From the NCBI RefSeq assembly GCF_030013595.1, contig NZ_CP122768.1: a DNA stretch of 64,000 nt, one strand, 5' to 3'. This document shows positions 23,377-25,272 of this stretch, piece by piece. This stretch comes from Escherichia coli (GTDB taxonomy: Bacteria; Pseudomonadota; Gammaproteobacteria; Enterobacterales; Enterobacteriaceae). Both the position numbers and the translations under genes were made by a program. Position 1 is the stretch's first letter. Each line of letters begins with the position of its first letter. The notes beneath the pieces were generated by a model, which saw nothing but the letters and a program-made list of their open reading frames with translations, was not told where the DNA came from and did no database searches.

Positions 23377-25272
23377 ATGACAGACATTACAGCCAATGTG
23401 ATCGTATCGATGCCTTCGCAACTCTTCACTATGGCGCGTTCTTTTAAAGCCGTAGCCAATGGCAAAATTTATATAGGGAAAATTGACACTGACCCGGTAA
23501 ATCCTGAAAACCAGATTCAGGTTTATGTGGAGAATGAAGATGGCTCTCACGTTCCTGTTTCGCAACCAATAATCATTAACGCTGCCGGATATCCGGTATA
23601 TAACGGACAGATTGCCAAGTTCGTAACTGTGCAAGGCCATTCTATGGCTGTTTATGATGCGTATGGGGCGCAGCAGTTCTATTTTCCTAATGTGCTGAAG
23701 TATGACCCTGACCAATTAAGACAGGAGCTATCTAAGCAGACTGATGGTTATTTTTTTAACCTTCCTCAAGGTGGTGTACTACATGATGCAATAAAGTATG
23801 TAACACCAGAAATGTATATCAATACATCTTCAGATATTACATCTGCTATACAAAGTGCATTTGACAATGGAAATGTGATTGATATGTCAGGTAGAGACTG
23901 GACTCTTGAGAGAACAATCCATGTCGGTGATGGCACTGAAATAAAGTTAGGCGCATCAACAATTACATGTCAACTTGGTTCTAAACCTGCTTTTGACTTT
24001 AGAGGAACAGATAAAGGACTCCTGGTCACAGGAGGTAAGTTTATTGGTAATTGCTCTGCAGTATTTTATTTCCAAGGGACTACTGCTTTCCCTTCTCAAT
24101 CAGGTCACTATGCAAGAAAAATAAGAATATACGGCACAGATGCTACTTCAGATACGGATGAGATAATTGATTTCATCTATATGAAGGACGCTGTAAGGCA
24201 AGTTTTTATTGATTCATGTTATGCATATGTAAAAAACGGCATTACTGCAAGCGGGAAATGTGTGGAGGTGAAAGTCCAAAAAAGCATATTCAACTCAGGA
24301 ACTTCCGATCAAAGTTCTTCTAGGATAAGTCTAAATTCACCGTCAGGAGCAAGTTATTACAACGAAGGTTGGCATTTTAGTGATTGTACAATTGATGGAG
24401 TTGGAAAATCATTTAATGTTACCGATATATATTCGTTAACCATCAATGGAGGATTTATCGGTGGTGAGGTTGCGTTTGGACAGCCAATAACAACACATTG
24501 CCGTGAGATCGTACTCGGTGGTGGATTAATCATGAAAGGGCGTGTTACTTTCACGCCAACCGTACAATATGACTACAGGGCCAACATATCTCCTTCTCTT
24601 ATGTTTGGTAATGGTGGAGTTGGAAACGTGGTCCTTAATGCAGGTGCTTCAGGCATCAACGTTAGCACAAAACTTGAAAGTTCTGGTGTTTCAGGAGGAA
24701 CTGGCGTTATTGTTAATGAAGGATGTTCTAATGTTAACGTTGACCTGAGCGCTGATAATACGTATGAAAGACTGGCGTCATTCAATGGTTACGGACCAAG
24801 GTGTTCCGCTTTGATACGTAACTACATGGGAAGCTCTCACCCAATTTATACAGAGCGACCATTAAAGATTATATCATCGCCTGTCACTGACGACGCTGGT
24901 TCTCTGCAGGTTATGAGTTTTGTAAATATACCAGCAGGAAGCTATATTGTTGGTTCTGTTATGTCTGAGGTGAAAGTGACTGCACCAAAAGGTTCTAGAG
25001 GGAAAATTTCTCTTACCATTTCACTGAGTGGATTAACAGGCACATCTTCACAGGCGCTTATTGTAAATATTCCTGCCGGAATGGTTACCCCATCCGGTTT
25101 AGGTTGGGCTTCAAATGTTATTAGACCTCAGTTTGCGGCTGGAATAATGAGTATTGAAATACCATTTTATACAACCACAGACATTGCAGAATCCTCATTA
25201 TCTGTATCTAATTTCTCAGGAAATACAGCAATTGTTGGACTAAACTCTTACATTGGATATTTTTTGATATGA
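23377..25272 (+). CDS. Tailspike protein: conserved P22-type N-terminal head-binding domain plus divergent C-terminal receptor-binding domain
   Basis: 631 aa; first ~115 aa ([18 protein letters not shown]...[21 protein letters not shown]...[13 protein letters not shown]...NVLKYDPDQ) closely match recalled P22 gp9 N-terminus; remainder Gly/Ser/Thr/Asn-rich, beta-helix-like. Confidence 0.85.

Follow-up and report, generated by a model that had tools for sequence, protein, structure and literature searches.

A P22-like tailspike gene in a prophage at argW

The window analyzed here is a 64,000-nucleotide stretch of Escherichia coli DNA (assembly GCF_030013595.1, contig NZ_CP122768.1), and our subject is the tailspike gene of a P22-like (Lederbergvirus-type) temperate phage integrated at argW of the E. 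coli chromosome. The gene is an intact open reading frame (ORF) on the plus strand at window positions 23377..25272, encoding 631 aa plus a stop codon. A Shine-Dalgarno sequence, GGAG, can be read 8 nt 5′ of the ATG start (23365..23368, +). Residues 1–113 (23377..23715, +) form the head-binding, or particle-attachment, domain, which plugs the spike onto the tail hub. They cover positions 1–113 of the 113-position Pfam Head_binding model PF09008 (E=1.4e-66) and are similar, far beyond chance, to the N-terminal domain structures solved for P22 gp9 (1lkt/2vky) and Sf6 gp14 (7sg7), with E values of 1e-45 to 3e-66; by phage, these matches stand at 3e-66 for Sf6 and 6e-53 for P22. At the protein level, the anchor is 95.7–96% identical to those of the HK620 and CUS-3 tailspikes. 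The genomic position is likewise that of a P22-like tailspike: the gene is the last of the late genes, follows gp16 and the immI region, and adjoins the integrase gene and attachment site. Taken as a whole, the product is probably a P22-like host-recognition spike that carries a receptor module from a wider family and acts as an O-antigen depolymerase.

The initial annotation of this stretch had placed a P22 gp9-type head-binding domain in the N-terminal ~115 residues of a 631-residue protein rich in Gly, Ser, Thr and Asn. Both points hold, since the reading frame is exact and residues 114–631 contain 62 Ser, 61 Gly, 40 Thr and 28 Asn among their 518 positions.

Predicted structure of the receptor domain

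Beyond the anchor, similarity to the characterized P22-like spikes is lost. Alignments extend over residues 1–115 of the query for HK620, 1–124 for CUS-3, 1–169 for Sf6 and 1–189 for P22, and after approximately residue 120 those to Sf6 and P22 contain weak, scattered identity only. The β-helix that follows has no sequence homology to the Sf6, HK620 or P22 receptor domains and does not group with them. Neither single-sequence nor profile searches of the PDB found a solved structure for the C-terminal domain by sequence; NCBIfam contains no family for the protein, and Pfam returned nothing in the C-terminal 518 residues. A PHROG 8280 match labeled ‘colanic acid degradation’ was set aside: it spans aa 1–358 only, is dominated by the anchor, and comes with no similarity to WcaM.

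The fold was predicted for the monomer with AlphaFold2, whose input was an alignment of 90 sequences collected by searching 1.84 billion representative proteins exhaustively with HMMER. The model of residues 113–631 has a mean predicted local distance difference test (pLDDT) score of 93.9 and a predicted template modeling score (pTM) of 0.88, and it divides into three parts. A poorly ordered linker or neck (aa ~114–142; 23716..23802, +; pLDDT 49–66 at model residues 1–30) leads into a right-handed parallel β-helix (aa ~143–509; 23803..24903, +), predicted to be the glycan-binding and catalytic domain. The all-β C-terminal domain (aa ~510–631; 24904..25269, +) has its DSSP elements at model residues 401–518 (pLDDT 95–98) and is a sandwich that the alignment shows to be kept throughout the family. 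The modeled architecture, a right-handed parallel β-helix followed by a C-terminal β-sandwich, is the usual one for tailspike depolymerases. In Foldseek, the tailspikes of Sf6 and HK620 rank with the best matches in overall architecture, Sf6 having a template modeling (TM) score of ~0.43; the fold neighbors include hydrolases of families GH87, GH110 and GH28 as well as the Sf6, HK620 and CBA120 spikes, and the BFVD viral fold library yielded generic β-helix spikes only, at TM <0.5. The β-helix-like character proposed in the initial annotation is thus recovered by structure prediction and by comparison with known tailspike folds, and its view that the remainder of the protein is unlike the P22, Sf6 and HK620 receptor domains agrees with the point at which the alignments end or fade.

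A receptor-domain family shared between unrelated anchors

The receptor domain is not an orphan and belongs to a modest, recognizable family. A word-indexed search of 5.8 billion proteins returned 14 clusters, while an exhaustive profile search returned 198 representative clusters at E≤1e-3, of which 121 remain at E≤1e-10; with clusters defined at 50% identity, the family numbers ~200. The module of ~500 aa is joined to differing anchors in the 90 aligned members, including the TSP1/gp66 N-terminal domain (11/90), the T7 tail-fiber N-terminus (4/90), and tail-collar and BppU_N domains, and the P22 head-binding anchor occurs in one cluster only. The family to which the module belongs is one exchanged horizontally between unrelated anchors of P22, epsilon15, T7, TSP1/gp66 and siphovirus types. 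PF12708 (Pectate_lyase_3, the rhamnogalacturonase A/epimerase-like β-helix) is matched in the helix cap by 26/90 members at E≤0.001 and by 38/90 at E≤0.1. The window protein itself gives no match to this model; it has the same fold, with the PF12708 cap ‘GAxGDGxxDDTxAIQxA’ replaced by ‘[25 protein letters not shown]’.

Only two isolated phages were found to carry a related receptor domain, Kagunavirus phage 26 and Uetakevirus vB_EcoP_PAS61. The phage 26 tailspike (UAW06957.1) is 32.9% identical over aa 114–574 and that of PAS61 (WMX19002.1) 31.9–32% identical over aa 117–616. Both pairs fall within the subtype definition of Pas et al., at least 30% identity and at least 60% coverage of the receptor-binding domain (RBD), and are borderline at the 30% limit. 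Near-identity to a characterized spike, which would have spoken against the divergent receptor domain of the initial annotation, was not seen, the closest studied being PAS61 and phage 26 at 32–33%.

On its O146:H21 host, PAS61 produces plaques surrounded by halos, and in silico work has put its spike forward as an O146 depolymerase (PMC11522302). The phage 26 spike is the singleton subtype ‘X11’ of Pas et al. 2023, with no serogroup assigned (PMC10408124). All three spikes share the family of helix plus C-terminal sandwich, with modules grafted onto genus-specific anchors: P22 head-binding in the window spike, epsilon15-type in PAS61 (aa 1–215) and siphovirus-type in phage 26. They differ in serogroup, in that the PAS61 host is O146 whereas the window-type spike showed no O146 association, its typed lysogen being O147 and the clone-mates of the window strain O138. 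Since the lysogen serotype is O147 and not O146, a specificity different from that of PAS61 is expected.

Among the classical P22-like spikes, HK620 gp9 and the CUS-3 tailspike resemble the window spike in genomic position and in the succession of anchor, β-helix and C-terminal domain; their receptor domains are nevertheless unrelated in sequence, with no alignment past aa ~124. The HK620 spike cleaves O18A1 as an endo-N-acetylglucosaminidase, and that of CUS-3 is a K1 endosialidase. Sf6 gp14 and P22 gp9 are endorhamnosidases acting on rhamnose-containing O-antigens, and O147 is also of this kind, but structural alignments to the window spike give 12–13% identity and the catalytic residues of neither can be mapped onto it. 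For the nearer sister RBD type, in protein P0003 (61% identical), no complete E. coli genome gave a match. The window spike can be described as an uncharacterized variant in specificity, with a known architecture and membership in a recognizable family.

Distribution and mosaicism of the gene

At the DNA level, the gene is 100% identical to a contig of run SRR30668489, and there are several deposits of its product (P0160) under the name ‘phage head-binding domain-containing protein [Escherichia coli]’, so identical sequences are already public without a specific annotation. The cluster at 90% identity comprises 98 member sequences, every source-named one of which is from E. coli, and near-identical copies are found only in E. 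coli prophages at argW. The copy in E. coli JX2 (WP_404312488.1, ‘phage head-binding domain-containing protein’) is 97.7% identical, and another lies in GCA_009925625.1 (contig WHZQ01000059.1, 839 kb, 275494–277389).

The two halves of the gene are distributed very differently. When 5426 complete E. coli genomes were compared by megablast, 1133 contained the anchor DNA (gene nt 1 to ~354–371) and one, strain JX2, the receptor-domain DNA, at 99.4% identity. Matches to other P22-like tailspikes stop at gene nt ~351–371 (window 23727–23747), and because DNA homology ends within the linker, an anchor/receptor-domain recombination junction is placed there. The mismatches to JX2 are skewed in the same way, with 34 of 43 falling in gene nt 1–319, mostly as synonymous changes. 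Compared with JX2, a metagenome scaffold and GCA_009925625.1, the window gene differs by 24–26 synonymous changes in the anchor and in 3–10 codons of the receptor domain, and allelic differences to JX2 and to loci L003 and L029 are likewise concentrated in the head-binding domain (window 23377–23796). As the anchors have diverged and the receptor domain remains 99.4% identical, the receptor module is younger than its anchors. This is the pattern left when a module has spread recently and been joined by recombination, within the linker, to diverged anchors. The predominance of synonymous differences in the anchor and the very few changes in the receptor domain also argue that the gene has been maintained. 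JX2 and GCA_009925625.1 share the C-terminal substitutions S527A, S545C and L550V.

A second exchange lies inside the β-helix. A 464-bp patch corresponding to codons 144–298 (window 23806..24269, +) recurs with 2 mismatches in P0002, an epsilon15-like (Uetakevirus-type) spike. In the protein, this stretch accounts for the first third of the β-helix, and its right edge is at the conserved residue E297 (L004:10730–11193, approximately; L027:6001–8196). P0002 and its sister P0003 are 96–100% identical over their last ~1,000 nt and 57–96% over the remainder, including the anchor. This clean sub-domain exchange within the helix, between a P22-like and an epsilon15-like spike, is the one notable addition to what is otherwise an ordinary further example of modular anchor/receptor-domain exchange.

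Candidate glycan substrates

That the substrate is an O-antigen is quite likely. For Lederbergviruses and Uetakeviruses, it is a documented rule that the prophage spike matches the O-type of its lysogen (PMC10408124). JX2, the single carrier of the receptor domain among the complete genomes, has an O147 wzx/wzy cluster, which is present in 6/5426 of these genomes, and the chance expectation of such a match is ~0.1%. With JX2 being one of six O147 strains, the O147 or Shigella flexneri 6 O-antigen is indicated as the receptor. Our leading candidate, which we hold tentatively and at slightly less than an even chance, is the E. coli O147 repeat →2)-α-L-Rha-(1→2)-α-L-Rha-(1→4)-D-GalA-(1→3)-β-D-GalNAc-(1→, also the backbone of S. 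flexneri serotype 6, from which O147 differs by the absence of O-acetyl (PMC4206707). The O138 antigen, which is related and also combines rhamnose with a uronic acid, may be degraded in addition or instead; O138, or an epitope shared by O138 and O147, is the less likely receptor, and another glycan takes up the remaining probability.

Several observations weigh against O147. The link to this antigen comes from one typed lysogen, JX2. The window flank at 36000–60000 is 100.0% identical to the pig strains HCP5S3_I2 and LCP30S3_I5, the next best genome being 98.9% identical, and these two strains are O138, not O147. Because the flank is identical to that of O138 strains, the window host may itself be O138, in which case the spike would recognize related antigens alike, the host lineage would have switched its O-antigen, or the receptor would be something other than an O-antigen. 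It is possible, if rather doubtful, that the receptor is not O147 at all, and is instead O138, an epitope common to the two antigens, or some different surface glycan of porcine E. coli, for instance a group 1/4 capsule or a K-antigen; the association with JX2 would then be coincidental or reflect only part of the host range. In keeping with such a reading, O138 is also rare (8/5426 complete genomes), and its gene cluster contains dTDP-Rha genes, a UDP-HexNAcA-type dehydrogenase/epimerase pair and three glycosyltransferases, a gene content that indicates a repeat of rhamnose and a HexNAc-uronic acid. Such a content would fit a repeat of the form Rha-Rha-(1→4)-GalNAcA-(1→3)-GlcNAc, which closely resembles that of O147. 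Serotype is also an imperfect guide, in that 25/64 receptor-binding protein (RBP) subtypes were inconsistent in host serogroup in the survey of Pas et al. (PMC10408124), and wzzB is a pseudogene in JX2. Against this stand the O147 type of the sole directly typed lysogen, with its small chance expectation, and the occurrence of the domain in 0/8 O138 complete genomes. In addition, the exact WzzB allele of the O138 clone-mate is found only on contigs ≤50 kb and not on the 5.58-Mb contig that carries the exact tailspike of the window, a pattern that is weak evidence of the window strain differing from the O138 clone at rfb.

The two pig strains lack the window spike and have another element at argW. 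This element (L021, NZ_CM149870.1 1619000–1632213) encodes an integrase, toprim/primase-like, Icd-like and ogr/Delta-like proteins, and a P2-family capsid gene. Since clone-mates hold a different element in place of the P22-like prophage, argW acts as a swap site within one clone. The O-antigen genes of the strains examined are also damaged, with an internal stop in wzzB of the O147 lysogen JX2 (L005:6647–7624) and a frameshifted O138 wzx in HCP5S3_I2 (L022:28304–29580, RefSeq annotation). Such damage may reflect phage-driven selection on the O-antigen, and it complicates the prediction of a receptor from serotype.

Candidate catalytic residues and mechanism

The β-helix carries an acidic cluster that is a candidate catalytic center: E297 (window 24265–24267, +), E330 (24364–24366) and D340 (24394–24396). 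The three residues are invariant in a 14-sequence alignment, and across 90 family members conservation is at least 90% for E330 and D340, as it is for K294 and Y245; the cluster is retained in members down to ~20% identity. They also align residue-for-residue with E404/E437/D447 of PAS61, one of two acidic clusters proposed in silico for that spike, the other being E491/E521/D541/D573 (PMC11522302). On these alignments, E297/E330/D340 would be the most likely catalytic center and the enzyme a glycoside hydrolase, a proposal to which we give an even chance or slightly better. A hydrolase is favored because conserved carboxylates are a hallmark of hydrolases and because the known P22-like spikes are hydrolases, as are all the characterized P22-like tailspike enzymes considered here (P22, Sf6, HK620 and CUS-3). 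Two points detract from the proposal: the second PAS61 cluster is only half conserved, E377 and D460 being kept while S407 and N428 replace E521 and D541, and both the specificity and the active site of PAS61, which with phage 26 is the nearest studied family member, are themselves in silico proposals. By analogy with P22-like and epsilon15-like phages, the trimeric spike would bind host surface polysaccharide along the helix and cleave it endolytically, allowing the virion to reach the outer membrane and thereby setting host range.

The main alternative to hydrolysis, serious though rather unlikely, is that the enzyme is a polysaccharide lyase acting by β-elimination at the 4-substituted uronic acid of Rha-(1→4)-GalA (or GalNAcA) and leaving a 4,5-unsaturated uronate, with the conserved K294, R250 and Y245 serving as base and acid and the carboxylates positioning a cation or the substrate. 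The candidate O147 substrate does contain a 4-substituted uronic acid, and several of the top fold neighbors act on uronates. However, the hydrolases and hydrolytic spikes among those neighbors (GH87, GH110, GH28; Sf6, HK620, CBA120) score equally well, and two carboxylates, as is typical of hydrolases, stand out as the best-conserved polar residues. That the P22, Sf6, HK620 and CUS-3 enzymes are hydrolases also counts against a lyase, as does the membership in the family of PAS61, whose O146 host antigen is not known to contain a 4-linked uronic acid. It is very improbable that the protein serves as an adhesin without catalytic activity, or that a defective prophage has left behind a decaying gene with no current function, as might be supposed from an RBD that matches no Pfam or NCBIfam family and a prophage early region that lies beyond the window, given an intact ORF with a good ribosome-binding site, the same or nearly the same full-length copies in many independent assemblies (the 98 cluster members), a receptor domain conserved at 99.4% between lineages with diverged anchors, an acidic cluster kept down to ~20% identity, and an intact late operon upstream.

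Tailspike receptor domains decide which serotype can be infected, and they can be reused as serotyping reagents, in engineered phages and for enzymatic removal of O-antigen. Serotype 6 of S. flexneri matters for vaccines, and the E. coli serogroups O147 and O138 are classical pathogens of pigs, so a validated spike for any of these antigens would be of practical value. In the literature searched by full text, no tailspike for either O147 or S. flexneri 6 is described. The strongest form of the proposal, to which we attach a small probability, is that this is the first identified O147/S. flexneri 6 spike, perhaps cross-reactive with O138 and perhaps a rhamnogalacturonan-lyase-like enzyme that cuts Rha-(1→4)-GalA. 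Lyase action on Rha-(1→4)-GalA, if true, would be without a described precedent among P22-like tailspikes.

Prophage surroundings of the tailspike gene

The late operon 5′ of the tailspike gene is intact throughout. By the ORF map, terminase, portal, scaffold, coat, gp4/gp10/needle and ejection-protein-sized ORFs lie 5′ of the immI block, and homologues of gp10, needle and ejection proteins are annotated in JX2 and L003. The immI-like region (21778..23276) comprises, by PHROG matches, an Mnt/Arc-like repressor (21778–22029, −), an Arc-like protein (22107–22280, +) and the antirepressor Ant (22347–23276, +), a layout annotated likewise in JX2 and L003. Between ant and the tailspike gene, a consensus scan identified an intrinsic-terminator-like hairpin with a T-run (23294..23320, +; hairpin 23294–23313), having an 8-bp stem with 5 G-C pairs and a T7 tail.

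On the 3′ side, an IntS-type prophage integrase gene (25349..26539, −) is convergent with the tailspike gene; the assignment draws on the ORF list, the annotation of intS in JX2 and Pfam integrase domains in L003 and L008. The 76 bp between the spike stop and the integrase stop (25273–25348) contain no gtr/gtrABC or oac O-antigen-modification gene. P22, Sf6 and PAS61 differ in having such a gene there, in PAS61 an O-antigen acetylase directly 3′ of the spike. The attachment site is the tRNA-Arg(CCU) gene argW (26665..26739, −), identified by ARAGORN and by the annotation of JX2 and HCP5S3_I2. Beyond it lie the host genes yfdC, mlaA and fadL, in a flank found in 5425/5426 E. coli genomes.

A moron-like block (20006–21781) is situated between the gp16-sized ejection gene and immI. 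It encodes a 149-aa protein (phrog_1281, with a SocA_Panacea Pfam match in the identical locus L007), a 164-aa protein (phrog_8366, with a weak PADLOC match to NsnC, E=1.4e-5), a 77-aa coiled-coil-like protein (phrog_7586) and, on the minus strand, a 105-aa protein with an N-terminal signal-peptide-like sequence (phrog_19844). PADLOC gave weak matches only for these immI-adjoining genes, for which superinfection-exclusion or defense roles are possible. Within the prophage, genes for tRNA Asn-GUU and tRNA Thr-UGU lie 5′ of the lysis/terminase region (1951–2106).

In the chromosomal flank, a 424-aa ORF between mlaA and fadL (28978–30252, −) has a GC content of 0.31–0.35, compared with ~0.45–0.50 on either side, and gave no significant Pfam match and no PADLOC match. 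Because the corresponding site holds no gene in L003 and yfdF in JX2, the ORF is best regarded as a variable chromosomal islet.

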